Below are positions 24,194-57,035 of a stretch of 64,000 bases of DNA, piece after piece. The translations under genes and the position numbers were made by a program. The notes beneath the pieces were generated by a model, which saw nothing but the letters and a program-made list of their open reading frames with translations, was not told where the DNA came from and made no database searches. Source of the DNA: Alphaproteobacteria bacterium (GTDB lineage Bacteria; Pseudomonadota; Alphaproteobacteria; SP197); NCBI GenBank assembly GCA_964291265.2, contig OZ219747.1, positions 896,001-960,000 on the forward strand, read 5' to 3'. Position 1 is the first letter of the stretch; the number at the start of each line of letters is the position of its first letter.

Positions 24194-24217
24194 CAATCAT
24201 GGGGTCTGCGCCATCGT

Positions 24218-38882: not shown

Positions 38883-39230
38883 TCACCGGTTGAGGATGAG
38901 TTTCCAGTCTTTGCGGAGAGGCCTCAGCCAGATGTCCTTTTTTTGGTTTGTCGAGTTTCCTGTGCGTATCGTAGCGTCCGCGCCCCTTGGTGGTGCCGAC
39001 ATGGATCCAACCCGACGCCTTGTAGACGGCGCCTGTGTAGCGCGGTGCGTGGCCAGGAAGGTGACACTCGCCATCATGTTCTTGAGGCCGCCGTCGGGCT
39101 TGTACCAGCCGGTCTCGCGGCAGAAGGCGCGGGCGATGGCCGCACGGGTGGGGTGCTGGGTGATCAGGGAGCGCAACAGCTCCATCTCGTGCGCGGTGAA
39201 GTCACGGCCGTAGTAACGGCACTCGATCAC
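38883..39230 (-). pseudogene. DUF4338 protein, internally deleted (different deletion from 33359-33667)
   Basis: RYYGRDFT.. joined to ..KKDIWLRPLRKDWKLILNR. Confidence 0.7.
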
Positions 39231-40054: not shown

Positions 40055-40304
40055 GTGTGCCAGGCGAACTGGCGGAAGGTAGGGGGTGAAAGTCCCCTGA
40101 AACGAAGGAGTAACCAAACCACGTTTCTCCGCGAGCCGTGCGTCGGTTCCCGCGAGGGGGCAGGCGAAGCGTCGGTAGCGGTACGGATGGGCAGGGCTAA
40201 TGAGCACCGAAAAGCCCGTTGTTCGGGGTGCCGAGGCTTTCGCATCGGTCGAAGGCAACATCGCAGGCATCGATTTGGTGAGATGTCGGCGAGCCCCGCG
40301 GTGT
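40055..40304 (+). ncRNA. Group II intron 5' part (domain I)
   Basis: Starts GTGTG; loop CGCATC (40241-40246) is complementary to the upstream exon GATGCG (40049-40054). Confidence 0.85.
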
Positions 40305-40650
40305 AACGCCAAAATCCGGTTAACAAGCCTGTACTACAATACTGCCCCACGACGCGTCTCTCTTTATCCACGTGTAACTAGACCGGAATAACCGGCATGT
40401 CAAGCCCCTCCCGCGACATAGCGTGTGTGCTAACCCAACGTTCAATGACAGCACAGTTGCATTCGAGGAAGTAATCGATAACATTCACGGCATGCACCAG
40501 AAGTCGAGGAACACCGATGATCTATGCAGAACACCAACAACTGACACACATGAGGACCATGGGGTTTTGTGTGATGGCGTTCGATGAGTCAACGGCTGAA
40601 TCACGTCATCGCCAGGCCCTTCTGTCGTCCCAGCCCCAGGGACTGAACCC

Positions 40651-41004
40651 ATGATGGAGGCGGAGGACACGAGACGCAAGGCACGCACCATCATGGCCTC
40701 CGACTCCGAGTGGGCACGGATCCGCGAGCGTGCGAAGGCTCTCGACATGCCCATCTCGCGTTTCGTCGTGCACCATCTTCTCGGCGCCACGGACGTATCT
40801 CGGCACGACACCGGAACGACACCGCCGGACCTTCCGGCCGACCTGCAGTGGCGTCTTGCCCACCACGTCATGGTGCTGGCCCGCCTCGAACGGTACCGCT
40901 TCGAGAGCGCCGGCCACGGCGAGGCCTGGGAGGCGATCGAGGAGGAGATCGACGCCCTGCTCGAGGCGGAGGGGCTGCTGGCCGGGAGGGGAGGACGGCG
41001 ATGA
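40651..41004 (+). CDS. Ribbon-helix-helix MobC/TrwA-like protein 1
   Basis: RTIMASDSEWARIRERAKALDMPISRFVV. Confidence 0.75.
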   Translation: MMEAEDTRRKARTIMASDSEWARIRERAKALDMPISRFVVHHLLGATDVSRHDTGTTPPDLPADLQWRLAHHVMVLARLERYRFESAGHGEAWEAIEEEIDALLEAEGLLAGRGGRR

Positions 41005-41318
41005 GGCGCAACCAGCAGTTCAGCGTCAGCTGCCGTCCCAGCGACTGGGAGGCGATCCGTCAGCGTGCGGAGGAGGCCGGGATGTCGATCTCGCGCTTCA
41101 TCGTCGCCTGCGCCCTGGAGGACGAGGACGACATGCGCCTCGTGATCTCGGAGACCGAGCAGCGCGATCTCCTCAACCGGGTGAACCGGATCCTTCTGGT
41201 TCTCGAGGACCTGGCGGCGCCGCTGCCGGGCAGCGACGTCACGGCCATGGAGGCCCTGTCGTTCCTCCATCTCGCGGCCTTGGAGTTTCGCAGCGGGCGC
41301 CGGGAGTCTGAGCGATGA
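41001..41318 (+). CDS. Ribbon-helix-helix MobC/TrwA-like protein 2
   Basis: FSVSCRPSDWEAIRQRAEEAGMSISRFIVACAL; ATGA-coupled. Confidence 0.75.
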   Translation: MRRNQQFSVSCRPSDWEAIRQRAEEAGMSISRFIVACALEDEDDMRLVISETEQRDLLNRVNRILLVLEDLAAPLPGSDVTAMEALSFLHLAALEFRSGRRESER

Positions 41319-41755
41319 CCGGCCGCCGCGTCGACGAGAGGGTCACCATGCACTCGATCTCGTGCAGCCGCCTGGAGAGGGAGCGCATCCGCGCCTGTGC
41401 GGAACGCGAGGGCGTGTCGATGTCGCAGTTTCTCGTCGACCGGGCCCTGAAGCGCAATCCGCCGGCGAAAGTGAAGAACCCGCCGCGCCTCGTCATCACG
41501 CCGGAGGAACAGCGGACCCTGGTGGAGACGGTCCGGGCCGTGGCCGAGACCGTGCGGACCCTGGAGGGGACGGATGAGACGCCGGGCTTCGTCGAGGCCC
41601 TGCGGGTGCTCTTCGAGGTCAGGCTCGACGCCATGACCCGCAGCGGGCATCACGGCGCCATGACCCGCTGGCTGGAGACGGTGCTGCAGGACAGCCGTGC
41701 GGCCCGCATGGAGGAGGAGGTCTACCGGCGCACCCGGTCTACAGGCGCCAGCTGA
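41315..41755 (+). CDS. Ribbon-helix-helix MobC/TrwA-like protein 3
   Basis: HSISCSRLERERIRACAEREGVSMSQFLVDRAL; ATGA-coupled. Confidence 0.75.
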   Translation: MTGRRVDERVTMHSISCSRLERERIRACAEREGVSMSQFLVDRALKRNPPAKVKNPPRLVITPEEQRTLVETVRAVAETVRTLEGTDETPGFVEALRVLFEVRLDAMTRSGHHGAMTRWLETVLQDSRAARMEEEVYRRTRSTGAS

Positions 41756-44700
41756 TCCTGCGGTCGGGACGGGTCCACCTGACCTGCCGCTCGTCGTGGC
41801 GCGCCACGACATCCTTCATGAACTGCCGTTCGGCTTCGGTGACGCCGATGCTCTCCAGGTTCTCCCGGAACCACGTCACCATGTCGCCGGCCTGGTGCAG
41901 ACCGAGCGGGTCCTTCCCCTCGGCCTCGGCCCTCGCCACCAGGCGCCTCCACGCGGTGCGTCGTTCGAGGAAGGCCCTGCGGGCCTCCGCCATGTCGGCA
42001 TGGTCGGCAAGCCAGGATGCCACCGCCTGGCGGGAGGGAGCACGCAGGCTCGCGGTGTTTGCCAGCCGGCGTGCCTCTTTCACGAGGTCCTCGTGGCCGG
42101 GCTGGTCCGTCACGTGGCGGCCCCTCGATGCGGCGTCAACCGCATGGTTCCGGCAGGCCGTCTGCCAGTCGCCGAAGGTCTCATGGGCGGCGAGACGCTG
42201 GCGGGCAAGGCGAACCGCCTCCTCCAGGCGACGGCGGGCGGGGGCTGCGAGATGGGGATCTCTCGCCGCCTCGTCCGCATCGACGATTCCGTGGCCCAGC
42301 CGGCCACGGGCGAGGTGCGCCTCCCAGTCCTCCAGCCGGCGATGGGCGGCCTCGGCCCTCTGGCGTGCCTGGTTTGCGTCCTCGCGGGCCTTTTCGCGCC
42401 GCGCCTCGCGTTCCCTCTCGTCCTCTGCCGACAGCGCAGGCGCGGCGGGGGTTGGCTCAACCGGCCGCTCGGGCGCCACCGGGTTGGCCGGTGTTGCATC
42501 CCTGATGGCAGCCCTTCTGGTGGCAGCCCTTGTCGTCTCCGGGGCGACGGTCGCAGGCGCCACCCGTGTCAGGCGGTCGTGGCGGTCGATGGCCAGCGTG
42601 AGGCGGGATGTCATCGCCGACGGCAGGGCCGGATCGGCGACGAGCGCCCGGGCTTCCCCGATCGCGGCCTCGGCGGCGGCGCCCGAGGGCTGGCGTTCCT
42701 CCCACGAGGCGAGCCACGCTTGAGCCTTTCTCCGGGCCTCGGCGCGGGCCTCGAAGGCCCCGACCAGGCCCGCGATCCGCTGCCGGTGGTCCTCTCCCAG
42801 GTCCGGGTCCCGAAGGAGCCTCCGGGCGTTCTGCATGAGCCCGGCCGCGTCACCGTGATCGTGGACCGGCAGGCCCGCCTCGCCGGCGTCACCCTCCAGG
42901 CTCGACCAGCGCGCCTCCCAGGCCTCGGCATGATCCGCGGTCGCCTGCTGAGCAAGGACACGATCATCCTCGGCCAGGATGGCCTCGGCGCGTTGCACCA
43001 GTTCCATAAGGTCCGGCGCCCAGGCCAGGTCCACCAACGCCCGTGCCGCGGTGAGGCTTGAATCTACCTGGAAGCGCCAGCCCGCGTCGTCGTCCGGATC
43101 GACGCTCTCGCCCACCCTGCGAAGATCCGGCCGGCGTTCAAGCACATCCATGAGGCGTGTCTCGACGTGGCGGACCGCACGGGCGCTCTCGCCGGTCCAC
43201 TCGGCAGAAGCCCACTCCGCGGTCCGCCGGTCGGACGACCCCGTCATGACGGCAAGCGCCTCGAGATGCTCGATGGCCTCGGGCTCGTCGGGCGCCAGGT
43301 CGGGCTTTCTCGCGCGTTTCCAGCGCCCGACCTCCAGGGGCTCGACGGCGAGATCGCCGACGTTCTCCTTTTCCGGAATGGCGGCGGTGATCTCCGCCGC
43401 ATCGAGGCGCTCGTCCACCGCCTCCAGGGCGGTGAGGACCTCGCCGGTGTTCTCCTCCAGGGTCTCGGCCAACTGCTCCCGGTTGTCGGTGATGATGATC
43501 GCCTCGTCGCGGGCCCGGCTGATCTCGACGTAGAAGGTCTGCTGGTTGGCCAGCGGCCCGTGGCCCGAATCGAGAACCGCGATCACCTTGTCCCGGGTGA
43601 GGCCCTGGGCCGCATGCACCGTCGTCGCGTAGGCATGCGCGATGTGGCGCAGCCGGGGATCGTCGAGATCCATCTTCAGCCGACGATCGTCGTCGGTGAC
43701 GAGAACGAGTGACGTCGTCCCGATCGTCTCGATTACCGCGGTGGCCCCGTTGACGAGGTGGCTCGGGTTGTGGTTGCGCGTCCAGCGGATGCGGTCGCCG
43801 GCCCGCAGGTCGATCGAGTCGGTCTCGAAGACATCGTAGCGGAAGCGCACGTCGCTGTCGGGCTTGACATGACGCGGCTTGCCGTCGTGGTGTCCGAGGG
43901 CAAGGCGCTCGCCGTCGATGCCCGTGATGGGACAGGCGTCTCCAGACTTCACCCGGTAGTGGTAGAGGTCGTTGTGGAAGACGACGACATCTCCCTCGCG
44001 GTAGTTGCGGATCTCGCGCTTCTGGGCCCGCGTCATGGAGAGGTTGACGAGAACCGGCAGGGTGACGCTGCGCCCGTGAAGGGCGCCCTCGGCCTCGAGG
44101 CCCTCCCTCACTCGTGCGTTGATCTCCCGGCGCAGGACATGGGTGGGCGCCATCAGCGCCGTCTCCTCGCGGTCCTCCGCCTCGAGGGCAAGCCAGATGC
44201 GGGCCGCGCTGTTGCCGAGGTCCGCGTGGTCCACCTCGAGGACATCGGCGCCCAGCCGCGTCAGGGCCGCGGCAGGCTTGCCGGCGATGGCGTCGAGAAC
44301 GGCCGCCTTGAGACCCGGATTGCGCTGGCGGCGGATGTCGTCCATGACCGCCGTCGCCATCCCGGCCTGCTGCAGCTGGCGGAAGGGCTGACCCGCATCG
44401 ACCGCACGCAGCTGCCGGCTGTCGCCCACCATCACAAGACGCGCCACGCCCAGGTGCTCGGCGCTTCGCATGAGGGACCTCACCTGCTCGGTGCTGGCAA
44501 GCGACATCTCGTCCACCACCAGCACCTTGCCGGCGAAGGAGCCGGCCGTCTGGGGCGAAGGCTCCCCATGACGCGTCAGGAACCACTGCAGGGTCCGCGT
44601 CGCGATGTTGGCCTCGCGGCCCAGCGTGCGGGCCGCGCTCGACGAGGGCGCAAGGCCGATGATGGCGTCGGCCCCGGCAAGCTCCACCACCTGGCGCAGC

Positions 44701-46049
44701 ATCGTCGTCTTGCCCGTGCCGGCGAACCCCTGCACGCCGATGACCGCATCGCCTTCGCCGAGAATGAGACTGAGCGCCGCCTGCTGGCCCGCCGTGAGAG
44801 TGGCGCCCGCGAGCTTCTCGCGGACAGCCGAAGCCGGCACGATCGCCCGCGTCCGGCCCACACCCTCCTTCATGCGGCGGATGACCTCGCGCTCGGCCCG
44901 CAAGGCCCTGTCCGTGACGATCGAGGGACCGCCGCGCGAACGGATGGCGTCGACGAGGTGGCCGTCCCGGCGCAGCTGGTTAATGGCCGCGTGAATGTCC
45001 TCGAGGCCGTGGCGTCCCGGCGCATGGGCCAGGGCGCCCGCCACAAGATCGCGCACCGCGATGACCGACTGGCGTTCCTCGAGGTGCTCGGCAACGCGCG
45101 ACACGATGTCGAGCGCCGAGGGCGCCGGGCGCGGCGTCACACGCTTCGGCCGGCGGCGGGTGAGGTCGATGCCCATCTCGCTGGCGCGCTCGCGCCACAT
45201 GCCGGTCAGCACCTCGCGGTGGGGCTCGCTCTTGCGCCGCCGCGTGGCGAGCGCCGCCGCCTGGGCCGCCGCCGCATTGTAATCCCAGCCCTTTGCGTCG
45301 ACATGATCGACGATCTCCTGACGCCGCGTCGAGAAGGCGTCCAGCGTCGCCTTCGACCAGCCGGCAATCTCGAACCCTTGCACCGGTCCGATCATCGTCT
45401 CTTCGAGTTCGTAACCGAGATCAAGCAGGCGCTTCGCCAGTTCGTTGCGGTAGTGGGCGCCGATCAGCAGGCGATGGGAATGCAGCCGGCCCGTGTCGAG
45501 GCTGCGCCAGGAGCCGTCAGGACCCCGGGTCATGTTGGCGACCACACTGTGGGTGTGAAGCTGCGGGTCGAGATTGCGGCTGGCGAGATGCCGGAAGGTG
45601 CCGGCCACCATGCCCTGCGCCCGCCGCCGCTCGCGCTTGCCCGTCGCCGGGTTGTGGACCCGCGTGACGAGAAGATCCCGCTCGATCATGTCGAGCGTCG
45701 CCCGCACCGCCTCGTCGTGGGCCCTGATCACCCGCTCGTCGCCCCTCACAAGGGCCTGGAGCGACACCGACTTCGGCGCCGAGAAGGTGATGTCGACGCC
45801 CGGGCGATGCTGGTGCTCGCCGCCGCGCGCCCGGCCCAGGCGCTGGTCGGCGCCGGGGACATGGCCGGCAAGGATGGATTCGAAGACCTTCGGCTTGACG
45901 TGGCGGCCAAGACCGAGATCCCGGGCTGCCTTGCCGTGCCAGAAGCTCGCCTGGCGGTGCTCCGGTGCGTTCTTCGCGTAGTATCCGTCCTTCTCGAAGT
46001 AGCGCACCGTCCCCGAGGCGGACGTGATGGCGGTGACCGTGGCGACCAT
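41739..46049 (-). CDS. MobF family relaxase-helicase (TrwC/TraI-like) with long helical C-terminus
   Basis: YFEKDGYY, DITFSAPKSVS, HLASRNLDPQLHTH, GFAGTGKTT, VVDEMS, HAYATTVHAAQG. Confidence 0.93.
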   Translation of the reverse strand: MVATVTAITSASGTVRYFEKDGYYAKNAPEHRQASFWHGKAARDLGLGRHVKPKVFESILAGHVPGADQRLGRARGGEHQHRPGVDITFSAPKSVSLQALVRGDERVIRAHDEAVRATLDMIERDLLVTRVHNPATGKRERRRAQGMVAGTFRHLASRNLDPQLHTHSVVANMTRGPDGSWRSLDTGRLHSHRLLIGAHYRNELAKRLLDLGYELEETMIGPVQGFEIAGWSKATLDAFSTRRQEIVDHVDAKGWDYNAAAAQAAALATRRRKSEPHREVLTGMWRERASEMGIDLTRRRPKRVTPRPAPSALDIVSRVAEHLEERQSVIAVRDLVAGALAHAPGRHGLEDIHAAINQLRRDGHLVDAIRSRGGPSIVTDRALRAEREVIRRMKEGVGRTRAIVPASAVREKLAGATLTAGQQAALSLILGEGDAVIGVQGFAGTGKTTMLRQVVELAGADAIIGLAPSSSAARTLGREANIATRTLQWFLTRHGEPSPQTAGSFAGKVLVVDEMSLASTEQVRSLMRSAEHLGVARLVMVGDSRQLRAVDAGQPFRQLQQAGMATAVMDDIRRQRNPGLKAAVLDAIAGKPAAALTRLGADVLEVDHADLGNSAARIWLALEAEDREETALMAPTHVLRREINARVREGLEAEGALHGRSVTLPVLVNLSMTRAQKREIRNYREGDVVVFHNDLYHYRVKSGDACPITGIDGERLALGHHDGKPRHVKPDSDVRFRYDVFETDSIDLRAGDRIRWTRNHNPSHLVNGATAVIETIGTTSLVLVTDDDRRLKMDLDDPRLRHIAHAYATTVHAAQGLTRDKVIAVLDSGHGPLANQQTFYVEISRARDEAIIITDNREQLAETLEENTGEVLTALEAVDERLDAAEITAAIPEKENVGDLAVEPLEVGRWKRARKPDLAPDEPEAIEHLEALAVMTGSSDRRTAEWASAEWTGESARAVRHVETRLMDVLERRPDLRRVGESVDPDDDAGWRFQVDSSLTAARALVDLAWAPDLMELVQRAEAILAEDDRVLAQQATADHAEAWEARWSSLEGDAGEAGLPVHDHGDAAGLMQNARRLLRDPDLGEDHRQRIAGLVGAFEARAEARRKAQAWLASWEERQPSGAAAEAAIGEARALVADPALPSAMTSRLTLAIDRHDRLTRVAPATVAPETTRAATRRAAIRDATPANPVAPERPVEPTPAAPALSAEDEREREARREKAREDANQARQRAEAAHRRLEDWEAHLARGRLGHGIVDADEAARDPHLAAPARRRLEEAVRLARQRLAAHETFGDWQTACRNHAVDAASRGRHVTDQPGHEDLVKEARRLANTASLRAPSRQAVASWLADHADMAEARRAFLERRTAWRRLVARAEAEGKDPLGLHQAGDMVTWFRENLESIGVTEAERQFMKDVVARHDERQVRWTRPDRRISWRL

Positions 46050-46116
46050 GATGGCCGAGTGTAGCGCAACATCGAGGCCACGGGCATCGTCCCGCAGACG
46101 TGATCAGGAGGCATCG

Positions 46117-47010
46117 ATGACACCTGAAGATCCCGAATCCCGGCGCATCGCCGACGAACTGAAGCGCCGCGAACGCCAGCGCCCCGCGACCGGGGCGTCG
46201 GTGGACCCCGACACCCTCAAGGCCATGCTCGAACAGTACACGGACGCTGTCGTGAAGCTCGTCGGACCGATCGAGAAGACCCTGGCGAAGAAGATCGACA
46301 CCCTCGCGGAAGCCCAGGGGGGCGTCGCCGAAAGCCTGCGCCACGAGATCAAACAGGTCCGCAAGGGTGGCGATACGGACAAGGCCGCGGCGCTGGAACG
46401 GCAGTTGTGGAAAGAGCAGCGTGCCGCCATGGAGGGGTTGTCGAACGAATTGAAGCAGAAGCTGGATACCCTGACAGAATCCCTCGACAAACGGGAGGGC
46501 GGGGTCTTCGCCGGAATTGACGACGTCGCCGAGAGCGTCAGGCCGGCAGCGCACGCACTCAAGGAGTTGCAAGAGGCCGTTGCCAGCACAGCCGCAGTCG
46601 CCGGTGATGTCGCGGCCATCCGCAAGGTGCTGGCCGGTGGAGTCCGTGTGCTCGACGATGTGGCGACCATCAGGGAGACCGTCACCCGCAACAGCAACAC
46701 CATCAATGACGTGGTGAAGATGAAGCCGGTGCTCGACGGGATTCAGACGAGCATCGGCACCTGGTCCAGGAGCATGCGCAGGCTGCGCTGGCTTGGATGG
46801 GTCGGGCTCATCCTCATCGCCCTCCTGTTCTCTGCCGGCGGAGTCGCACTGCAGAGGGAAACCGGCATCTGGACGCCGCTGGCCGACGTGGAGAACCGGG
46901 ACCGCGACGAAGTCTGGGAACGCTACGGCGAGCAGATCATCACCTGCCGCGACGCAGCACGCAAACGCAAACGGGCCATGGCCTGCACGATCGTGGACAT
47001 GGATCCCTGA
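46117..47010 (+). CDS. Coiled-coil protein with C-terminal TM helix, divergent from the relaxase
   Basis: AGGAGG RBS; long heptads; WLGWVGLILIALLFSAGGVAL. Confidence 0.7.
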   Translation: MTPEDPESRRIADELKRRERQRPATGASVDPDTLKAMLEQYTDAVVKLVGPIEKTLAKKIDTLAEAQGGVAESLRHEIKQVRKGGDTDKAAALERQLWKEQRAAMEGLSNELKQKLDTLTESLDKREGGVFAGIDDVAESVRPAAHALKELQEAVASTAAVAGDVAAIRKVLAGGVRVLDDVATIRETVTRNSNTINDVVKMKPVLDGIQTSIGTWSRSMRRLRWLGWVGLILIALLFSAGGVALQRETGIWTPLADVENRDRDEVWERYGEQIITCRDAARKRKRAMACTIVDMDP

Positions 47011-47033
47011 TGAAGGAGGAACGTCCGAAAGCG

Positions 47034-47528
47034 TCAGGGGGCGTCCGGAAAGAAAGGCCACGGCGCCAGGGCGCCATCGACGTGCTTGCCTTTCCAGTAG
47101 ATGAGGACGCCAAGCGGCGTGCCATTCCTGGCGACGCTGACCTCGCCGTGGACCTCGTCATCCACGTACGGTACCAACGCCTCGACGCCATTGGGCCACG
47201 AGATGGTCACGATCCCGTCAAACACGCCATCTCTGACAGGACCCGCCATCCGGTAGCCGTTGCCATCCCGACGTTCCCATGGACCGTGCAGGCTTCCGTC
47301 CTCAAACGTCACGACATAGAACCGGTCGTCCGCCAGATCGAAGGTCCATCGCCCATGAAAGACGCCACCAACATGGCTCTCCACGATGACACTGCCATCG
47401 GCAAGGGTTGCCTCCCACCGTCCCTCCTTCAGACCTTCAACGAGGCGTCCTTCGGCGCGGTTGCCCCGGTCGTCAGACAGGACACCGTCCCCATGCGCCG
47501 TGCCGCCCCAACAGTCGCCCGTCGTCAT
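47034..47528 (-). CDS. MORN-like repeat protein, probably 5' truncated
   Basis: Repeated GxxxxGxxxGxW units (GLKEGRW, GVFHGRW, GSLHGPW, GVFDG). Confidence 0.65.
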   Translation of the reverse strand: MTTGDCWGGTAHGDGVLSDDRGNRAEGRLVEGLKEGRWEATLADGSVIVESHVGGVFHGRWTFDLADDRFYVVTFEDGSLHGPWERRDGNGYRMAGPVRDGVFDGIVTISWPNGVEALVPYVDDEVHGEVSVARNGTPLGVLIYWKGKHVDGALAPWPFFPDAP

Positions 47529-47857
47529 CCAGGATTGTCATCGACATCGACCTGCTGTCCTCCGGTTACGTGATCATGCTCTGTTTGTGTCAAAACCTGC
47601 GTCATGCCTCGAGCACCAGACGCTACTTCATTCATTCCCAGCACGAAGGCCGGAGAATTTAAGGACCACATACTTGACTTAAAAATCCATGTGTCCGATC
47701 ACTTGTCATGTTTCCTTATGTTCCGTCTTTTCAAGCTTGTCGATGCGATGTCGTGTGAGTGCGAGGGCCACCTGTTCGGGTGTCGCGCCCTCGTAGCGGG
47801 TGTTGCGAACTCTGATGTCGGGTGGTCGCGGGACTTGGCGCTTGTGCTTGTCTTCGG

Positions 47858-48469
47858 TCATGGTGCGACTCCGATTAGGACCAAGGGGACGGCAGGCACC
47901 CCACGCCCCTGCCGAATGACGTTCAGCAAATCGCGTTCGTAATACGGAACCCCGGAAGACATCTCTCGTTCAAGTTCCTTCATCGGCAGTATCTCTATCC
48001 CCACGTCGATGATGTCAGACACGTAGAAGCTCAAGTGCTTGACGAATAAGTCATGTGCCACAAAAGCATATTTGCCGAACTGAACTTCGACGGCCACTCG
48101 ATCCTTCACAAAATCTGTTTGGTTGTAGGACATGATCGGCTCATGCCCTGCCTCCTGGATTGCGGTCTTTTGTTCCTGTTCGGACCTTCCGTATATTGTG
48201 CGGAGCAGTTTTTCGTCAGATGTAACCCAGAAAGTGTGTCGGCGTTGTTCCCACCCATAGAACTCGAAATGTCTCTTGAAATCGGTGTTCATGTCGGTGG
48301 GCGAGAACAGGGCGGCGCCCTTCATGTTTCGCTCTTTGGACACCTTGGTCCTATTCACGTGTGCATCCACCTTCTCGATAACACGGCGCACTTCTTCCCA
48401 CAAGTTCGGCTTGTGAACCAGAAGGTACTCTTCGCCATTCAGGTGTGAGTATCGGGCCTCAATTCGCAT
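47858..48469 (-). CDS. BglII/BstYI family type II restriction endonuclease
   Basis: NQTDFVKDRVAVEVQFGKYAFVAHDLFVKH..MSSGVPYYE. Confidence 0.9.
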   Translation of the reverse strand: MRIEARYSHLNGEEYLLVHKPNLWEEVRRVIEKVDAHVNRTKVSKERNMKGAALFSPTDMNTDFKRHFEFYGWEQRRHTFWVTSDEKLLRTIYGRSEQEQKTAIQEAGHEPIMSYNQTDFVKDRVAVEVQFGKYAFVAHDLFVKHLSFYVSDIIDVGIEILPMKELEREMSSGVPYYERDLLNVIRQGRGVPAVPLVLIGVAP

Positions 48470-49299
48470 CAGTGTCCTCCATTTGGCAACGCCGGATCAT
48501 AAATTGGCTTTCCCATTGGCCGGGTTTTCAACGTGCCGTCACGGAGCTTCTGGAGGCGCTCGTGGGCAATGTCCACGTAGTCTTGCACGGTATCGCATCC
48601 GAAGACATTGCGACCATGCCTCACCGCCGCGATCGCGGATGATCCGACGCCCATGTGTGGATCCAGAACTGCGTCTCCCTCGTCCGTCATAGACAGCACA
48701 AGCCTTTCGACCAACTCAACGGGGAACTGGCACGGATGGTCTGTTTTCTCGGGGTGGTTGTTCTTGACGTTCGGAAACACCCACACATCGGATGGGTTCT
48801 TGCCGTTCGGGTTGCCGGACAACTGTCCCGCCTTCGGACCCTTGAAGTGCTTCTTGCCGGGGTATTTTGCGGGCACACGGATGGCGTCCAGGTGCCAAGT
48901 GTAATTTTCATTTTTAGTCCACCAACTGATCGTCTCGTAGCGGCCTGACAGGCGTTTCGTGCAGTGCAAGCCGTGCCCGAAGTGCCAGACAATCCGATTG
49001 CGAAGTTTCAAGCCATGCGCACGAAAGACCGGATATAGGATCGTGTCCAGCGGAACGATCTCGCCGTTATCGACGTAATTCCCCACTTGCCAGCAAATCG
49101 AGCCTTGAGGATGCAGAAGGCGGACACAATCGGCAATGACCTTTTCCTGCCATTGTAGATAGTCATCCAATGATGACCGCGATTCGTAGTCCTTGCCGAG
49201 ATTGTAGGGCGGCGACGTGACGATCAATTTGAACGCGCCGTCTTTGTGCTTTGACATGAATGCAAGATTGTCCTCGCACTCGATAACGGAACGCGACAT
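48469..49299 (-). CDS. N4-cytosine DNA methyltransferase (M.BglII-like, beta class)
   Basis: IVTSPPYNLGK, KNPSDVW, HPCQFP, VLDPHMGVGSS. Confidence 0.9.
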   Translation of the reverse strand: MSRSVIECEDNLAFMSKHKDGAFKLIVTSPPYNLGKDYESRSSLDDYLQWQEKVIADCVRLLHPQGSICWQVGNYVDNGEIVPLDTILYPVFRAHGLKLRNRIVWHFGHGLHCTKRLSGRYETISWWTKNENYTWHLDAIRVPAKYPGKKHFKGPKAGQLSGNPNGKNPSDVWVFPNVKNNHPEKTDHPCQFPVELVERLVLSMTDEGDAVLDPHMGVGSSAIAAVRHGRNVFGCDTVQDYVDIAHERLQKLRDGTLKTRPMGKPIYDPALPNGGH

Positions 49300-50297
49300 C
49301 ACCGCGCACCACTATCGAGATCGTTCGACGCGAACAGGTCCTGATACATCAGGGATCTCCCGGCTATGCCCGCAACCGCGGCGCCCATCTGTTCGATGGC
49401 GTCCAGTTCACGGACGTTGTGACGCCCTGCAAACTCGTGGACGTCACGATCAAAATGCTTGGCACTGATCTTGTGATAGACGCCCTTGCGGGCCCGCTGG
49501 AGCATCGACCAGAAGGATTCGATTCCGTTGGTGTACGCCATGCTGCGCACGTACTCTCCGACGCCTTGGTTGACCGCTTCGCGTCCGAAGTCGCCTGCCA
49601 GTCCTCGGTAGCCGTAAGCCTCGTTTGTGTAGACTATCGCGCCTGTTTCCGTGTTCTCCCTCACGAAGCCTTGCAGGGTCGGTGCCGTGGTGTCACTGAA
49701 AACCTTCGCCAGAACGCTGTTTGATCCACGATCCTTCACGTCGTCAACCACAGTCTTGCCCACTGAACCACGCCCTGAAAGCTCTTTCCGGATCGATTTG
49801 GGCATGTTCTTGCGGAGACCGCCCATGTAGGTCTCGTCGGCCTCGACCGGGCCGGTGAAGGACGCGGCCTCGATCTTCCATGCCTCGCGGATGCGGTGAA
49901 GCATGAACCACGCCGTCTTCTGCGTGACCTTGATATCCCGATGAAGCTTCATCGAGGACACACCCTTCAGGTTTGTCATTTCGAGGTAGATGGCCAAGAC
50001 CCACTTGCGGAACGAGACCTTGGACCGTTGAAGCGCGGTGCCGGTCCTGACTGAAAAGGTCTTCCGGCAACCCCTACAGTAGTAGGGCAGGCCCGACGTG
50101 GCAGATGCCTGCATGGTCTCCGTGGAGCCACAACGGGGGCAATGACGGCCTTCCGGCCAGATCACCGCCTCGAACCACGCCGCCGCGCCGTCTTCATCAG
50201 GGAAGATGTCCCCAAGCTCCAAGATGGAGATGCCCTCGCGATGTGACTTGCCCGGTTCCTTCTGTGCCACTTCCGAATCCAATTCGTTGTTTCCCAC
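49299..50297 (-). CDS. IS1595 family transposase
   Basis: CPRCGS..CRGCRK zinc ribbon, VEADETYMGG, TNGIESFWSML; second catalytic D appears as N (YTNEA). Confidence 0.9.
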   Translation of the reverse strand: MGNNELDSEVAQKEPGKSHREGISILELGDIFPDEDGAAAWFEAVIWPEGRHCPRCGSTETMQASATSGLPYYCRGCRKTFSVRTGTALQRSKVSFRKWVLAIYLEMTNLKGVSSMKLHRDIKVTQKTAWFMLHRIREAWKIEAASFTGPVEADETYMGGLRKNMPKSIRKELSGRGSVGKTVVDDVKDRGSNSVLAKVFSDTTAPTLQGFVRENTETGAIVYTNEAYGYRGLAGDFGREAVNQGVGEYVRSMAYTNGIESFWSMLQRARKGVYHKISAKHFDRDVHEFAGRHNVRELDAIEQMGAAVAGIAGRSLMYQDLFASNDLDSGAR

Positions 50298-50339
50298 TGA
50301 ACATGATCGATGTCCTGATTTCCGTCAAGTATATAGCCC

Positions 50340-50860
50340 CAAGAATCTGGAAGACCTCCGACGACACCGGCGCCGTGACCGTGGCGCAAGCGCGTCAACG
50401 GGCACGCGCCATGCTGGCGGCGTACAGGAACTGTGGCTCCGCAGAGCCCGGGATCGAGAATGACGCACTCTTCGAGACCGTCGCACGGGAAGTCCTTGTC
50501 CACCACGAACGGCTCTGGAAACCCGGCACCCTCGAGGTCAACCGGAAACATCTTCGCAGACAGACCCTGCCCTTCTTTGCCGGCCGCATGATCAGCGCCA
50601 CTACCCGGCAGGATGTCGCAGCATGGTTCCGCTCCCTCCATGCAACGGCGGCGGCGGCAAACCGGTCTGCGCCGGTCCTTTCTGTCATCACGCAGAAGGC
50701 CGAGGCCTGGGCTTACAGGCCGGAGAACAGCAACCTCTGTGCCGGTATCCGCCGCTACCGCGAGACCAGGCGCGAACGGATCCTCCTGCCGGAGGAGTAT
50801 CGCATTCTTGCAGATGTTCTGGCACCCCACCAGTCAAGGTGTCCCTTGCAAACTGATGCC
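50340..50860 (+). pseudogene. Internal fragment of a third, diverged integrase A paralogue
   Basis: ARQRARAMLA..LFETVAREV..WKPGTLEVNR..WFRSLHAT..ANRSAPVLSVI. Confidence 0.8.
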
Positions 50861-50899
50861 ATGCTGATGTCAGTCTCGCGGAAAAGGAATTGCAACTAC

Positions 50900-52378
50900 T
50901 CACCCCTTGTTGGGGTCTGGTTGTCCGTAGTGCTCGTTGAGGATGTCTGCGGCCTTTCCGTCGAGGGCGATGTGGATGGCGACGTGAGGGTTGTAGCCGA
51001 GTGCGTCCATGGTGGTGAGGTAGCTTGAGCCTCGGCACCATGCCTTGGCGTGGGGCATGGTGCGGAAACATCCGGACACCTTGATCTTGACCTTTGTCAT
51101 CCTGATCTTCTGCTCTCCGGTATTATTTGTGAAACTGACATTGGGGTCCTTCATGAAGCGCAGGACGGACTTCTCGTGTTTCACGAGACGTTCATGCAGG
51201 TTGTGCGCGTCGGACTTTGCGATGCGTCCCCGTTTTCCTTTCGTCCGTGGCGGGATGTCGGGCAGTTCCTTGGCGCCCTGGGTGAGGATGGTGCGGTAGC
51301 GCTTGCGCACGGCCCGGCGGTCGGCCTCGTTCAAGGTCTTGGATGCGCTCTTGTTGACCCTGCGGGAGACCTCGCGCAGCAGGCTTTTCATCAGTCGCGC
51401 CCAGCGGTAGCCGTTGGACTCGACGACGAAGGTCATCTTGCGCAGCAGGTGGCTGCCGCACAGTTGGTGGCGGCACTGATCGTAGCCCATGTAGGCAGCC
51501 CAGCAGTCGTGGATCAGGACGCCCTTGTAGCGCGGGATGATGCCGATATCTTCGATCGCCTCCCGGCCGCGCTTGGGGTGCGGGAACTTGCACGTCAGGG
51601 TGCCGTCGGTGACGACATGGAGCCATTGGGTCTTGCCGGCGACCCGGAAGCCGGTCTCGTCGACATGCAGGGCCGGTTGTTGCAGGAGATGGGCCACGGC
51701 GGCCTCCTCCCATGATGCGAGGGCATCGTGAAAGCGCCGGACATAGCCGAGGCAGGTCGCCTCGGAGAGCTTGATGCCGGAGATCGCGTGCACGAGCGAG
51801 ACGGCACGACGCAGGGACAGCATCTGGGCGATCAGCAGGTTGATGACGAGGGCCTGGATGCTGACGCCGTACTGCAGGGGGCCCGGCATGTTGTCTGGGA
51901 ACCGGCCCTTGGTCCGGGCCCGGCACTTCGGGCATTCCTTGATCTCGGCTTCGACGCGGTGCTCGACGACTTCGAACACGATGTCGTAGAGGACGCGGCA
52001 CTCCCGGTCGACGGGGTCGACATCGTGGAGGTCGGCGCCGCAGGCGTTGCAGGCATCGACGGTGATCGTCTCCTCGATGGTGGTCGTGCGCAGGTTGTCG
52101 CCCGTCTGCTGGTTCGGCTTCGGGCCCTTGCCGTGGCTCCCGGTGCGCCTCGCGCTCTCGTCCTTGTCAGTCTGCGATGGCGGCAGACCGGAGTTCCGGC
52201 TTGTCTTACGTGTGATCTTCTCCATGAGCACGGTCAGCAACAGCTTTATCAGCATCAGCATGCCGCGGAAGAGCTCCTCGCACTCCTGGTTGACCTTGCC
52301 CTGCTTGCGGAGATCCTGGAACTGCTTCTGGAAGATGTCGGCCTCCTGGCGCACAGACGTGCCGTTCACGCTCGCCAT
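50900..52378 (-). CDS. tnpC: IS66 family transposase (single-ORF ISBst12-like)
   Basis: SRNSGLPPSQ, CNAC/CPKC, HVDETG, IHDCW, QLCGSHLLR, FTNNTGEQKIR..KVSGCFR. Confidence 0.92.
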   Translation of the reverse strand: MASVNGTSVRQEADIFQKQFQDLRKQGKVNQECEELFRGMLMLIKLLLTVLMEKITRKTSRNSGLPPSQTDKDESARRTGSHGKGPKPNQQTGDNLRTTTIEETITVDACNACGADLHDVDPVDRECRVLYDIVFEVVEHRVEAEIKECPKCRARTKGRFPDNMPGPLQYGVSIQALVINLLIAQMLSLRRAVSLVHAISGIKLSEATCLGYVRRFHDALASWEEAAVAHLLQQPALHVDETGFRVAGKTQWLHVVTDGTLTCKFPHPKRGREAIEDIGIIPRYKGVLIHDCWAAYMGYDQCRHQLCGSHLLRKMTFVVESNGYRWARLMKSLLREVSRRVNKSASKTLNEADRRAVRKRYRTILTQGAKELPDIPPRTKGKRGRIAKSDAHNLHERLVKHEKSVLRFMKDPNVSFTNNTGEQKIRMTKVKIKVSGCFRTMPHAKAWCRGSSYLTTMDALGYNPHVAIHIALDGKAADILNEHYGQPDPNKG

Positions 52379-53043
52379 GACGACGCCTCCACCGCCATGA
52401 CTGCCGCCAGCACGGCGAGCCGCTCGCCTTCGGGCATCGTCCGGTAGCGCCGCGCCCAGCTCTCTGCGAGGCGCTTGATGCGCTGGCGGTCGATCGAGTT
52501 CCTGCCCGCACACGTATGCCAGTGCGGTCGGCCCGGTGCGAAGTTGAACCACAGCTTCTCGGTGACAACGCAGGCCTGGTTGTTGACCTGGACCTCGGCC
52601 GAGCGCCAGCCGGCGAGGTGCGTGTCGTAGAGCCGCGAGGGATAGCCGGAGATCATCACCTGGCAGGGCAGCGACGTCAGGATGTCGAGGAGCGCAACAT
52701 GGTCATCGTCCGTGCAGTCGAAGCGGTAGCGGCGCTGCGACCGGCGCGTCGACTGCACGTAAGGCGGGTCGCAGTAGACCAGCTCGCGGCCCTGGAAGGC
52801 GAAGGTCTCGAGAAAACGCAGGGCGCAGCCTTGGTGAAGCTCCACCGGATAGTCACAGCGGAAGGTGTCGATCGCCCGGCGGTTGAGGTCAATGCCGATG
52901 CTGCGTAGCGCCGGAGGCTTGCGCTTCATGATCGCGCCGCCCCCAAGGAACGCCTCGATGTACACGTCATGCGGCGGCATGGCCGCGACAATCGCCTGGC
53001 TCAGACCCGTCGTCGCCTTCGATCCATACCATGCCGCCATCAA
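52366..53043 (-). CDS. Compact D12/Dam-class adenine methyltransferase
   Basis: YGSK, YIEAFLGGG, IGIDLN, YCDPPY, MISGY, TEKLWFNF, plus basic helical tail overlapping the tnpC start. Confidence 0.88.
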   Translation of the reverse strand: MMAAWYGSKATTGLSQAIVAAMPPHDVYIEAFLGGGAIMKRKPPALRSIGIDLNRRAIDTFRCDYPVELHQGCALRFLETFAFQGRELVYCDPPYVQSTRRSQRRYRFDCTDDDHVALLDILTSLPCQVMISGYPSRLYDTHLAGWRSAEVQVNNQACVVTEKLWFNFAPGRPHWHTCAGRNSIDRQRIKRLAESWARRYRTMPEGERLAVLAAVMAVEASSWRA

Positions 53044-53074
53044 TATCTCCGACGCAATCCGCCCCGATGGCCTG

Positions 53075-53103
53075 CATGTAGAGCGCCCCTCCTACAATGT
53101 CAA
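53075..53103 (-). promoter_or_regulatory. Putative sigma70 promoter of the IS66 methyltransferase with an inverted repeat in the spacer
   Basis: TTGACA-17-TACATG; GTAG-N10-CTAC at 53078-53095. Confidence 0.45.
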
Positions 53104-53383
53104 GCGCATATCTCCAGAGGATTGGAAAGGCAGCCAACGGAACACGCTCCACCGGACAGAACGGTTGACACGCAACCTCGGCGCGGGGTGCCGGATCACG
53201 TCGCAGCCCCCTCCCCATAAGGCCGGAACGTGGAGCTGAAGCCGAAGATCGATCCGCTTCTTGTCAGTCGGAACACGCACATCCGATCATCGGCAGCGAG
53301 CCAGTGAAGGCGGCAAGAGAAAATGCCGGATCCGAACTCGTCAGGAAAAACCATTCGTCATCAGTAGGGGGGTGAGTAGTTAC

Positions 53384-54139
53384 AAGGAATCTTCACAAGG
53401 GCACGACCAGAATAATCGCTCCACAGCACACCATCAAAGCCGCACAAACTTGGTTGATTAAGAACAATCTGATACAGCATCTCCCGCACTTCAGAACACT
53501 CAACAGGGGGATAGCAGTTCAACAACAGCAACCACCGTTCAACGAAGTTTCCGTCCTCCCAAGGGAACTTCTTGCACTTGGTCTCCAAAGCTCGTTCCAA
53601 CATGCTTGAAGTCGCCGAGAGGATCTCCGATACTCCAGGGCTGGTGTAAATTTTCCAGGAACATTCTGGACCACCTGGTTTGAGCATAATGCCAGGACGC
53701 TTCAGCGTTTTATCACCATTTCTTTCAATATGTTGGCAAACAAGTGCCCTCGTTTTAGTCTTCCATTTTTATCGAAAAGTACTGCATTTTGATTCAGGGG
53801 ATCATCTGGCTCAGGCCCGAGAAGGCCGAGAAATAAGATGTAGTCACGCGTACGCTGATTGCGTGTTATTCTATCAAGTTCTTCCCCGTATTGGCGAAGC
53901 GGAACAATCAAGTCTTTTGATGACATGATCTTTTCTTTATTATAACCCATGGCCTCTTGGTAAACCCTGGTTACCTCAACACCCCATCGATCACCATTTT
54001 TCATTTTTACCACAATATCCGGTGGATCATTCGGGTGCACTCGCACTTGAAATCCGGACAATTCTTGGGCCTCCAGGTATTTGCGCAACAACTCGCAGGA
54101 AAATTCTTCGTCCGAAATACCTTCTTCTTCGTCCGACAT
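53384..54139 (-). pseudogene. PD-(D/E)XK-like hypothetical nuclease, frameshifted, 3' tip displaced by IS66
   Basis: NDPPDIVV..WGVEVTR; low GC; ORFs 53702-54139 and 53361-53687; last codons (IPFPRD*) at 50870-50891. Confidence 0.55.
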
Positions 54140-54509
54140 ACCTTCGTATCCTCCTCGTAATTAGTAACCCTTGCTCTCCGACAATCCATGCCACGGCACT
54201 CTGGTAGGATCAACCGGTTGTCACCACTTCCATACCATGAAGACTTGCCTTTGGTCAATAGGATGCGATGAATAGTGTTCAAGCAAGGAGAATTTCATCC
54301 AACGTGACGTTCTTCCGCTCTGCCAGAATACAGGCCAAGTGACGTAGTGCCCGTGTCGTCGACACTTTGAAGTGGGTGCGGGTCTCGTACAGGATAATGT
54401 GTTTTTCGGTAATGCCCTTGTGTCTTGCAATGTTCGCAGTTTGTTAGGAATCCACCCACCTTTTTTCGTGCACCCCGCCGGTTGGCGCCTGACGATCCGA
54501 CAACACGGT

Positions 54510-54622
54510 TTCCGTCGTGCTCTGTGCGCTTCAGTTTCGGTCGATACTCGACAGACACGGAAATCGAGCAAGAAGCTGACATGGCCCTCGGGGTGCTCGA
54601 GTCCCTGGCAGACCGGACTTGA
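54510..54622 (+). pseudogene. 3' remnant of a cysteine desulfurase (IscS/DndA-like)
   Basis: CSVRFSFGRYSTDTEIEQEADMALGVLESLADRT*. Confidence 0.6.
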
Positions 54623-54644
54623 CGATGGCGCAGCCCCATGACTG

Positions 54645-55781
54645 TCAGGCAGTCGCGTCCAACCCGAGCATGTCCGAGATTGCCGTTGCGATCCGCTCGG
54701 CAGCGGCTTCGGTTTCCCGGTCGCCCGTGTGGGCGTAGCGCAGGGTCATGGTCGTCTGCGCGTGACCGAGGAGCCTTGCGACGACGGGAAGCGGCGTTCC
54801 CTGCATGACGGCATGGCTGGCGAATGTATGGCGCAGATCATGGAGCCTGACATCCTCGATGCCGGCCTCCCTGCGGACGACGTACCACAGTGGGAGATCG
54901 TCGTTGAGCGGCCGTCCGGGATCGCGGGGGGACGGGAAGACGAATGCGCTGTCGCCGGGAAGACGGCGCTCGATGATGGCCTGGGCCGGGGCATTCAGGA
55001 CGACCGTGCGCGGACCGACCTTGCTGTTCCGGAGCCGGAGACTGTTGCCGAGCACCTCCTGCTTCTGCAGGCGGACGATCTCGTTCTTGCGACACCCGGT
55101 AAGCATGAGAAGCCGGATGATGTCGATCTGCATTCGCCGTGATCGACTGATCCCCTGGAGATTGTCGTGGCGGTCCAGCACGTCATGCAGCCGATGAAGT
55201 TCCTCGCGCGAGAGGAAGCGGGTGAGTTTCCTGCGCGGGTTGGGTTTCACCGACCTTGCCGGGTTCGCTGTGATGTGGCCGCAGGCCATGGCGTGATTGA
55301 GGATGTGTCGAAGGACCTTCAGGCATGAATTGGCCCCGCCGGGCGCCGTTCTGCTGTAGTCGTCGAACCAGCGGTGCACCATGGCGGGCGTGATCTGGTC
55401 CAGGCATCGGGAACCGAATGTCGGCAACAGGCGGGCTTGAAGGCACCTGTCGCGCCACTGGATCGTTCCGGGCTTGCACCGACGGACCCAGGAATCGCGC
55501 CATGCGACAGCAAAGTCCCTGAACAACGGGACCGAAGCCCTGTCGTCGTGACCGGCTGCCAGTCTTTCGAGGCTCTCCTTGCGGGCCACCTTGACCGTCT
55601 TGAAGGCGACCGGACCAAGCGATGTCCTTCTTCCGCCGTCGATGTGAACGAAGCCGCGGCCTCCCGACGGGTGGACCCGAACCCCGAGAGAGGGAACGAA
55701 GGTATCGCGAAGCGTGTACTCCCGGGATCGCGGCTTGAGGTTGCGCACGAGGGTATCTGTCAGCTTCTTCCTGCGGTTCAT
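54645..55781 (-). CDS. Tyrosine recombinase/integrase B (copy 2)
   Basis: Near-identical to 23054-24193. Confidence 0.92.
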   Translation of the reverse strand: MNRRKKLTDTLVRNLKPRSREYTLRDTFVPSLGVRVHPSGGRGFVHIDGGRRTSLGPVAFKTVKVARKESLERLAAGHDDRASVPLFRDFAVAWRDSWVRRCKPGTIQWRDRCLQARLLPTFGSRCLDQITPAMVHRWFDDYSRTAPGGANSCLKVLRHILNHAMACGHITANPARSVKPNPRRKLTRFLSREELHRLHDVLDRHDNLQGISRSRRMQIDIIRLLMLTGCRKNEIVRLQKQEVLGNSLRLRNSKVGPRTVVLNAPAQAIIERRLPGDSAFVFPSPRDPGRPLNDDLPLWYVVRREAGIEDVRLHDLRHTFASHAVMQGTPLPVVARLLGHAQTTMTLRYAHTGDRETEAAAERIATAISDMLGLDATA

Positions 55782-56905
55782 GCATCAGTCCTTCCGAGAA
55801 CGGAGCCCACGGCCTCTGCCGCTTCGGCCATCATGCCGTCGGCGAGATGCGTGTACTTGAGAGTGGTGGCGGGATCGTTGTGACCGAGCAGTCGACCGAC
55901 GGTGAGAATGTTCTCTCCGTGCATGACGGCAAGGGAGGCGTAGGTGTGACGCAGGTCGTGAAGGCGCACATCCTCCAGGCCCGCTTCGGAGCGCACACGC
56001 ATCCAGAAGTATCCGATGGCGCCTTGCGAGATGGACCTGGCTGTGGTCCTTGGCGATGGAAACATCCAAGGCGAACGACGAGGCAACGTTGTCAGGATCT
56101 TCCGGGCGGGAGCCGACAGCCAGACCATGCGTGGCCCCGTCTTGGAATCCGCGAGATGGAGATGGCCCTCGCGGTAGTCCGCCCAGCGCAGCGACAGGAT
56201 CTCCTGGCTTCGGCACCCGGTGAGGAGCAGGAGGCGGATGATCGCCACCTGTGCCGGAAAGTGCGCTTCATGGTCCTGCAGCACGCGCCCGAGCCGGCGG
56301 ACCTCCTCCACGCAACAGAAGCGCTCCCGTCCCTGCCGTCGATAGCGCCTGATGCCCCGGCACGGATTGCTGCCTTCAGGCCGGTATCCGTAGTCCTCGG
56401 CACGGGCCATGATGACCGAGAGAACCGGCGCCGACCGGTCGGCTGCGACCGGCGTCGCGTACAGGGAGGCGAACCACTCCTGAACGTCACCGCGCACGAT
56501 CTCCGCGATCTGGCGTCCACGGAACCACGGCAGGATCTGATTGCGGTAGTAGTTCCGGTTGACCTCGAGTGTGCTGGACTTCCATGTTCGCCCGTACCGG
56601 CGAAAGACCTCCTCGGCGACCGTTTCGAACAGGGTTTCGTCGGATGAAGCGGGAGCGTCGCTTCTGATGGCGGTCAGCATGGCTTGTGCGCGTTGTCTGG
56701 CCTCGGCGAGACCGATCCCGGCAGCGTCACCGACGATCTTCCAGATCCTCTGTCCATCATGCTGGGTATGGATGAAGTAGCGCTTGCGCCCCGATGGGTA
56801 GACACGGATGCCGAATCCCTTGAGATGGGCGTCACGGGTGTCCCGGGCAGCCCTGCGCGGACGAAGGGCCTTGATGCGGCTCTCGGTGAGATGTTTTGCA
56901 GCCAT
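55778..56905 (-). CDS. Tyrosine recombinase/integrase A (copy 2)
   Basis: Near-identical to 21930-23057. Confidence 0.92.
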   Translation of the reverse strand: MAAKHLTESRIKALRPRRAARDTRDAHLKGFGIRVYPSGRKRYFIHTQHDGQRIWKIVGDAAGIGLAEARQRAQAMLTAIRSDAPASSDETLFETVAEEVFRRYGRTWKSSTLEVNRNYYRNQILPWFRGRQIAEIVRGDVQEWFASLYATPVAADRSAPVLSVIMARAEDYGYRPEGSNPCRGIRRYRRQGRERFCCVEEVRRLGRVLQDHEAHFPAQVAIIRLLLLTGCRSQEILSLRWADYREGHLHLADSKTGPRMVWLSAPARKILTTLPRRSPWMFPSPRTTARSISQGAIGYFWMRVRSEAGLEDVRLHDLRHTYASLAVMHGENILTVGRLLGHNDPATTLKYTHLADGMMAEAAEAVGSVLGRTDA

Positions 56906-57035
56906 GGAGTCTCCCTCGAATGCGAGTTGCAGGAACGGGAGATTCCGTTCGCGCAATCGCCCGCAGTTGCAGGATCGAGAGAGAAAATACAGCGTTAGTT
57001 CAGTTGTTTAGCACCACAGGTGCGTCCCGCGGTGT

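Follow-up and report, generated by a model that had tools for sequence, protein, structure and literature searches.

A mobilisable element with two tandem integrases, an N5-GGTGT attachment core and a MOBF nic-like end

MTnPi1-3, the 'Tyr duo' integrative mobilisable elements (IMEs) of Prevotella intermedia, carry two tandem tyrosine integrases, both suspected to be necessary, and use short attachment (att) sites with a variable central N5 at many sites per genome (PMC4755523; PMC5704250; statements on PMC papers refer throughout to the accessible parts of their text). The IME_oriT elements of streptococci, likewise integrative and mobilisable with a relaxase of their own, insert at the nick site within other elements' transfer origin (oriT), some of them at other chromosomal sites (PMC7563843). 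Here we describe a 16,731-bp insert in a 64,000-nucleotide stretch of an alphaproteobacterial genome (contig OZ219747.1, positions 896,001 to 960,000; hereafter the window), which splits one copy of a multicopy group II intron and encodes two tandem tyrosine recombinases, IntA and IntB, and a MOBF relaxase. With its own integrases, att repeats flanking a restorable empty site and a relaxase unaccompanied by a type IV secretion system (T4SS) of its own, the element works like an IME, yet it matches none of the named families compared in full. We consider it probable that this island excises and reinserts by integrase crossover within a core of the form N5-GGTGT, and we predict that the junction of its circle doubles as a transfer origin.

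The differences from described systems are several. By published description, rather than by comparison of the proteins, the MTnPi integrases lack significant mutual homology (PMC4755523), whereas IntA and IntB are 36% identical paralogues; the MTnPi att is TTAC-N5-AA in AT-rich DNA (PMC4755523), as against N5-GGTGT here, and these elements carry a primase and reside in Bacteroidetes, with no link to a nic site reported in the accessible text (PMC4755523; PMC5704250). IME_oriT elements combine MobT/Rep_trans relaxases with integrative conjugative element (ICE) hosts in Firmicutes (PMC7563843), in contrast to the MOBF relaxase and integrase pair found here, and the present copy lies in an intron, not at an oriT nic site; a sequence-level nic match holds for plasmid relatives only, which unlike IME_oriT lie between two nic-like copies, and the family includes a lineage that appears to have left oriTs for any N5-GGTGT. 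The oriT of R388 and its relaxase TrwC share with the element a 5-bp stem, the G and T after the stem, G-T-N-T before the cut and a purine after it (PMC4176350; PMC3264647), but here the motif sits at the attachment site, behind a longer and variable spacer, and is accompanied by neither TrwB nor a T4SS. Rows of several tyrosine recombinase genes also occur in SEs, GInts (whose excision varies the att sequence), RIT and Tn554; these systems use three or four genes for recombination (Tfp/GinC, Srap/GinD, TnpC), have a 6-bp footprint and lack mobilisation genes (PMC9345347; PMC10214605; PMC5385486), whereas the locus studied here has two full enzymes, apparently of the DUF4102 type, a relaxase and matching overlaps. 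The IntSXT subgroup has an N-terminal DUF4102 arm-binding domain, like IntA, but the members named are single integrases of ICEs, islands and phages, and no tandem arrangement was found in the accessible text (PMC8138268). A 2017 review knew of no canonical IME with a MOBF relaxase, and the literature searched, with subscription papers and supplements lying outside the search, yielded no description of this two-integrase N5-GGTGT family. Integrase duos with N5 att sites and oriT-targeting IMEs are already known; it is the attachment/origin design and the plasmid relatives that deserve work.

Insert boundaries and the N5-GGTGT core

The window contains CCCGCGGTGT at two places only, 40295-40304 and 57026-57035, bearing out the original prediction of a 10-bp direct repeat at both boundaries within intron domain I: the Rfam group-II-D1D4-6 model (RF02005) matches 40089-40317 with 152 bits, and the core lies on the 3' strand of a domain I helix. 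The interrupted intron spans 40055-58704, as judged from the sequence and a contig joint (40054->58705), and is oriented antisense within an IS66 transposase gene, whose rejoined frame matches the intact copy at 31566-33362. Its 3' part is identical to other intron copies in the genome and holds a reverse transcriptase (RT) open reading frame (57145-58632) that is intact, as had been predicted, and scores above the TIGR04416 cut-off; folding of the rejoined intron 3' stretch gave a z of -0.34. The predicted empty site was also found, the joined flanks agreeing in sequence with 27 intron junctions that are uninterrupted in other parts of the genome (13 of an RT-bearing type and 14 of a shorter type), and near-identical full RT copies number 16.

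Relatives of the integrase pair are abundant. This genome (G000) has 10 IntA matches, each paired with IntB. A match is present in 18 of the 41 genomes searched and in 14 of 22 that belong to the same genus, one genome holding as many as 25; of 8,000 candidate proteins, 4,694 are related at E<=1e-40. For part of the matches, chiefly in the long-contig genomes G002, G004, G005, G009, G011, G012, G013 and G015, stretches of up to 40 kb were compared. Among 52 IntA-anchored genome ends, 46 conform to GCACC-N3-GGTGCG-N5/6-(G/C)GTGT and six lack the hairpin. Family-wide, the core generalises to N5-GGTGT, and the form of the integrase end is GCACC-N3-GGTGC-G-(T)-N5-GGTGT. To find left ends, the ribbon-helix-helix (RHH) gene RHH1 and a CTCTC motif served in 28 cases, without use of the repeat, and repeat search in one more. 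In the 29 of 46 elements with both ends mapped, N5 is identical at the two ends in 24, differs by one mismatch at position 4 or 5 in four and is unrelated in one, and the agreement forms a sharp block, with positions -5, -4 and -3 matching in 28/28 and position -6 in 13/28. It had been proposed that homologous integrase pairs would be bounded by CCCG(C/T)GGTGT as the target: a short direct repeat does bound the pairs, exactly in 24 of 29, but that core belongs to the sub-lineage of the present element only, the family invariant being GGTGT (CGTGT in one clade).

A pattern scan of metagenomes returned 120 loci, 72 of them with IntA adjoining the motif. After a filter had removed 63 of 168 motif matches and duplicates were collapsed, 85 end-site pairs remained, with 76 distinct N5; the fixed part is GGTGT in 74 and CGTGT in 11, and CGTGT marks one integrase clade among the genome loci. 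The relaxed targeting originally predicted is thereby supported, as is a mobilisable integrative element; the recombinase pair is conserved and its catalytic residues are intact. Where ends at least 95% identical occupy different host sites (13 pairs), N5 is the same in three, one base off in three, two off in one and three off in six, and among distant end pairs N5 differs by at most one base in 68 of 3,032. The mean N5 mismatch is 1.0 at IntA identities of at least 95% (two pairs, one event), 2.7 at 90-95%, 3.2 at 85-90% and about 3.6 below. Relaxase domains that are 98-100% identical go with unrelated N5; the relaxase therefore does not read N5. Taken with the frequent sharing of N5 by near-identical ends at unrelated sites, these comparisons point to N5 as a heritable, slowly drifting crossover and fit tyrosine recombination over a short stretch of overlap, which has to match almost fully and drifts where it does not.

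Host alleles could be set beside the ends at several sites. Both ends equal the host allele in the intron, in a D12 methylase gene and in one further repeat target, and in two one-mismatch cases the host allele equals the left end once (in a porin gene) and the right end once, a mixed polarity that agrees with the prediction of heteroduplex resolution. For the mismatch at G013:389 kb no empty allele was found in five genomes (0/5); the C2:1.73 Mb site is single-copy, and of the two allele types of the host insertion sequence (IS) at C2:3.68 Mb neither equals the core of the element. Any N5 followed by GGTGT has a median of seven sites in this genome. CCCGC followed by GGTGT has 41 distinct matching sites, of which 29 are intron copies; this share explains the presence of a second element, whose IntA is 96% identical but whose left end and relaxase differ, at the equivalent position in a further copy of the intron. 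Probably the intron is no more than the matching target that this sub-lineage meets most often, its use as a location being ordinary and incidental. A separate oddity is an element with unrelated ends (G013:C1:2136500-2164223, the G013:2.136 Mb element), whose left core equals the right core of another element, G013:C1:4798, in opposite orientation; here we suspect a large rearrangement between family members.

The nic-like integrase end and plasmid relatives

At the level of sequence, the integrase end is very like the nic site of R388/TrwC. The substrate from R388 reads GCACC-GAAA-GGTGC-GTATTGTCT^purine, in which a purine is required at +1 (PMC4176350), and the element's end has the MOBF nic features of a 5-bp stem hairpin, G-T-N-T before the cut and a purine at +1. 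A search of the insert for nic-like patterns gave four matches, and only the end itself is both noncoding and accompanied by a hairpin. Across the family the hairpin is present in 56 of 62 integrase-anchored ends, with the same stem in 49, a compensatory pair in two and a free loop. The base after GGTGT, which at the left end is the base that a circle would have at +1, is a purine at 28/28 left ends, compared to 19/28 host flanks. A relaxase domain is carried by 25 of the 29 two-end elements, and MobF or RHH1 was found near none of six hairpin-less loci.

Integrase pairs about 40% identical to this one occur on plasmids (12 plasmids with 13 pairs, out of the best 25 matches), and in a tree their first genes form one clade with IntA at a support of 0.96, those from Shewanella and Vibrionaceae at 0.999. 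The motif GC-N-N3-GGTGT, which has the canonical MOBF spacing, stands 107-223 bp before the first integrase in 10 of the 13 pairs, often with a hairpin of different but paired sequence; none was found at this place in Vibrio europaeus, Paracoccus and Novosphingobium THN1. Six pairs have a second nic-like copy at the far end, five of these on the side of traI or of further tra genes. On two MOBF plasmids of Shewanella baltica the pair and variable cargo stand between two copies of one 13-mer, the far copy of which has a long hairpin and adjoins traI, and S. oneidensis has the same two copies. Aliivibrio shows imperfect nic-like copies before traI, Sphingorhabdus a 16-bp repeat with tra genes beyond, and Aurantiacibacter three nic-like sites that bracket two tandem units; in Photobacterium the island abuts traI, and a far copy was not found. 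Judged by motif and position, these copies are probably the nick sites of the plasmids. The canonical 9-nt spacing is seen in the plasmid relatives and in a 29-kb element of a distant clade (G000:C2:3749386-3778753, at C2:3.749 Mb), which has a hairpin and canonical-spacing nic-like sites at both ends and no MOBF match inside.

The relaxase-free islands that two MOBF nic-like copies bracket beside tra genes (L213, L221 and L211 on Shewanella plasmids; L222, L219 and L214/L217) could be excised by the relaxase of their host plasmid.

Proposed mechanism and competing explanations

We infer that the element is excised by the two integrases acting as a heteromer, then nicked and transferred. IntA and IntB, bound at arm sites of both ends, would recombine the two cores into a circle that keeps N5, and the circle junction, hairpin-G-(T)-N5-GGTGT^purine, would be nicked by the element's own MOBF relaxase together with the RHH proteins, transfer requiring the T4SS and coupling protein of a helper. 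The integrases would insert the circle at a site matching N5 and GGTGT, and an occasional tolerated mismatch would let N5 drift between lineages; the CCCGC sub-lineage would land mostly in the intron, which supplies most of its matching sites. The family likely descends from islands that targeted the nic site of MOBF plasmids, with attachment site and oriT superimposed. More tentatively, and with slightly less than even confidence, we suggest that the two-integrase family arose as MOBF nick-site parasites on conjugative plasmids, with a copy of the 5' half of an oriT as their end. One lineage would have gained a TrwC-like relaxase and turned the nic spacer into a free 5-bp crossover, so that a combined att and oriT is completed on excision and the target is a heritable, drifting 'address'; another would have lost hairpin and relaxase and been domesticated as a porin shufflon. 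Almost no oriT is known in relaxase-bearing IMEs (bioRxiv 10.64898/2026.01.13.699239), and coincidence of att and oriT, if true, would explain IMEs without a findable oriT beside the relaxase. The relatives in cultured Shewanella and sphingomonads make this coincidence testable, the family could serve to examine why two integrases are necessary for some elements, and a recombinase pair that targets five exchangeable bases and GGTGT is a candidate retargetable integration tool.

Several observations weigh against this mechanism. The proposed nick has the RHH genes on its 3' side, away from the hairpin, whereas in R388 the accessory genes lie on the hairpin side. The hairpin-less loci form one clade, 17 of the 46 hairpin ends (that of a pair at 21.8 kb in the window included) have no far end in the stretch fetched, the nic-like motif occurs in just two of 17 chromosomal stretches (16 distant matches and one close), and seven of the 13 close end pairs, which are non-independent, differ at two or three N5 bases. 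No helper is in hand: TrwB, VirB4 and TraG-type proteins have no match in the genome, and PF02534 is represented by a 154-aa fragment only. No circle junction is among the joints listed (15 of 23) for two contig-only sequencing runs, and contigs drop rare forms; both runs come from one study, and X1 may be the source sample. A joint in run X2 (40304->54527), which may represent another element variant at the intron site, was not used as evidence. Finally, the hairpin-to-cut spacer is 11-12 nt with a variable N5, that is, 2-3 nt longer than the 9 nt of R388, and TrwC needs the hairpin-to-cut stretch to be nearly invariant (PMC4176350).

The same long and variable spacer (PMC4176350) favours an explanation that keeps the integrase model but reads the hairpin as nothing more than a core-binding site for integrase or a leftover of an ancestry in oriT targeting, a working oriT lying elsewhere in the element. 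The host left flanks, moreover, are weakly like the proximal arm (G at -12 in 10/15, G at -9 in 11/15 and C at -7 in 10/13), as expected if integrase binds there. We regard this as unlikely, given a stem that is kept with a free loop and compensatory changes, the joint loss of hairpin and MobF in a clade that retains both integrases, and the position of the sole noncoding, hairpin-bearing nic-like match at the very end of the insert. That the repeat is instead a true target-site duplication, with GGTGT recognised and the five upstream bases of the target copied in transposon-like fashion, would accommodate the diversity of N5 across the 85 sites, its near-randomness below 90% IntA identity and the three targets at which both ends equal the host allele. 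Such duplication is very improbable, however: near-identical ends at unrelated sites share N5 far above chance, of 10,319 GGTGT sites, the same intron position was hit by two elements that differ in their left ends and whose relaxases are 53% identical, and the single mismatches at positions 4-5 occur in both polarities. Tyrosine recombinases exchange overlaps and do not duplicate them.

TrwC can integrate DNA into minimal nic-like targets (PMC3264647), and the invariant GTGT of the targets and the purine bias at +1 (69/85) would suit a relaxase that integrates the incoming single strand at nic-like GTGT^ sites, leaving the integrases to excise only or as passengers. We find this scarcely credible, since N5 is independent of relaxase sequence, strand transfer at GTGT^ cannot yield the mismatch case with the host allele at the right end, relaxase-free relatives have the same core, and both integrases are conserved. 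The original prediction had also cast the insertion as an on/off switch for the retroelement. Two intron copies with elements at the same position, an excision that would restore an intron with intact RT, and a variant left arm at this site in the second run can be cited for a selected switch, but with 16 near-identical RT copies and 27 uninterrupted junctions the state of one copy is immaterial, the abundance of matching targets explains the repeated insertion there, and insertions of other family members fall in unrelated genes. No host gene depends on the intron, since it lies antisense within a transposase gene of IS66. A switch is the least probable of these explanations, with next to no likelihood in our estimate, and integrase crossover in N5-GGTGT remains the account that we prefer.

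Gene content, cargo and porin cassettes

The three RHH genes and the MobF relaxase expected at the end opposite the integrases are present (Table 1), and no T4SS component or coupling protein was found among the 17 proteins of the insert scanned; the closest solved structure to the relaxase is TrwC. The integrase genes are coupled as predicted, overlapping stop/start, and both encode R-K-H-R-H-Y and match Phage_integrase; an arm-type domain reaches the Pfam cut-off (PF13356, DUF4102) in IntA only; IntB has no match, and in one relative IntB matches below the cut-off. The restriction-modification pair, the IS1595 transposase, the IS66 composite and the IntA remnant add to the earlier list of contents. 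The remnant has 89.5% DNA identity to an element at C2:1.765 Mb, the IS66 composite is missing in the second sequencing run (joint 50883->53384), and that run has a variant left arm at the same intron site.

Table 1. Features of the interrupted IS66 gene, intron and insert (window positions), and porin loci of the hairpin-less clade
Feature	Position	Strand	Basis
IS66-family transposase gene split by the antisense intron, 3' part	39227..40054	-	rejoined frame and contig joint
Group II intron, 5' part, with most of domain I	40055..40304	+	Rfam RF02005; boundary from contig joint
Left core, N5=CCCGC and GGTGT, then purine A	40295..40304	+	sequence
Candidate arm site for integrase: CTCTC-type motif about 55 bp in from the left end, in inverted orientation to the right-end copy	40357..40363	+	function inferred
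Three ribbon-helix-helix (NikA-like) genes, candidate relaxosome accessory proteins	40651..41755	+	RHH1 below cut-off
MOBF relaxase-helicase (TrwC-like), 1,436 aa; tyrosines and HUH motif present	41739..46049	-	PF08751 E 4e-79, NF041492
Two hypothetical genes	46024..47528 (46114-47010; 47034-47528)	+; -	no family above cut-off
Type II restriction-modification pair (BglII-like endonuclease, N4/N6 methylase), cargo	47858..49302	-	family scan
IS1595-family transposase	49299..50297	-	family scan
Remnant of second, divergent IntA gene, opposite orientation	50282..50851	+	49% identity to IntA
Multicopy IS66 composite with D12-class methylase; later insertion	50884..53383	-	absent in second run
IntB tyrosine recombinase, intact RKHRHY	54645..55781	-	Phage_integrase match
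IntA tyrosine recombinase, DUF4102 arm-binding domain, intact RKHRHY	55778..56905	-	Phage_integrase match
Candidate arm site: CTCTC-type motif about 50 bp in from the right end	56977..56984	-	function inferred
Hairpin GCACC-ACA-GGTGC, then G,T; equals IR2 and next two bases of R388 nic site	57011..57025	+	R388 oligonucleotide in PMC4176350
Right core, N5=CCCGC and GGTGT	57026..57035	+	sequence
Group II intron, 3' part, carrying the intact RT/maturase ORF (57145-58632)	57036..58704	+	sequence, family profile
5' part of interrupted IS66 transposase gene	58705..59673	-	ORF and contig joint
Hairpin-less pair and porin cassettes, core CCACT-GGTGT	G000:C2:4026109-4035894; G004:C1 ~1.096-1.100 Mb; G011:C1 ~2.517-2.522 Mb; L003:4140-13628

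In relatives, the catalytic R, R and Y are kept in 90 of 90 IntA and 70 of 90 IntB proteins, the remaining IntB being truncated except for one that is frameshifted. It is plausible that IntA and IntB act as one two-subunit enzyme. A protein of 654 aa with IntA and IntB in one frame (P0102) lacks the catalytic end of IntB and is likely a frameshift product, so that it does not count as evidence of a fusion. The host genes of relatives include helicase, IS, methylase and porin genes, and the family carries defence and other cargo. Within the window itself, a 99%-identical integrase pair with core CCCGT-GGTGT lies at 21800-24312, after hutU; its cargo reaches to about 36 kb in the window and includes what we take to be a large ATPase whose C-terminus is PRTase-like, together with a restriction-methylase pair and an AbiE-like pair, and no far end was found within 83 kb. 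At L127:10001-10050 an integrase end is followed by about 15 bases resembling a left end and then by unrelated DNA, a possible relic of a tandem or a circle.

The hairpin-less clade has a different setting. Its IntA-IntB pair stands between an intact porin-like gene with a signal peptide and an inverted cassette without one, with a shared core, and this arrangement recurs in four of the five genomes that have the clade (G000, G004, G011 and G012), G012 having one further porin cassette and G000 an IS66 between IntA and core. In G013 a cassette lies beside the pair, but an island is inserted on the other side. We had considered these loci as islands; their far ends were not found in 40 kb, and the inverted cassettes explain the clade instead. 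The arrangement suggests a domesticated porin shufflon derived from this family, the porin label resting on sequence features rather than on a family scan.

The group II intron shows habits of its own. It repeatedly inserts antisense into IS66 genes, and at least 14 short copies without most of the RT open reading frame, presumably mobilised in trans, lie on C2 of this genome (for example 377180-376772). At one locus nesting reaches three levels, a 52-kb family member (G000:C2:2108116-2160229) containing an intron copy that in turn holds another member (2129340-2142636).

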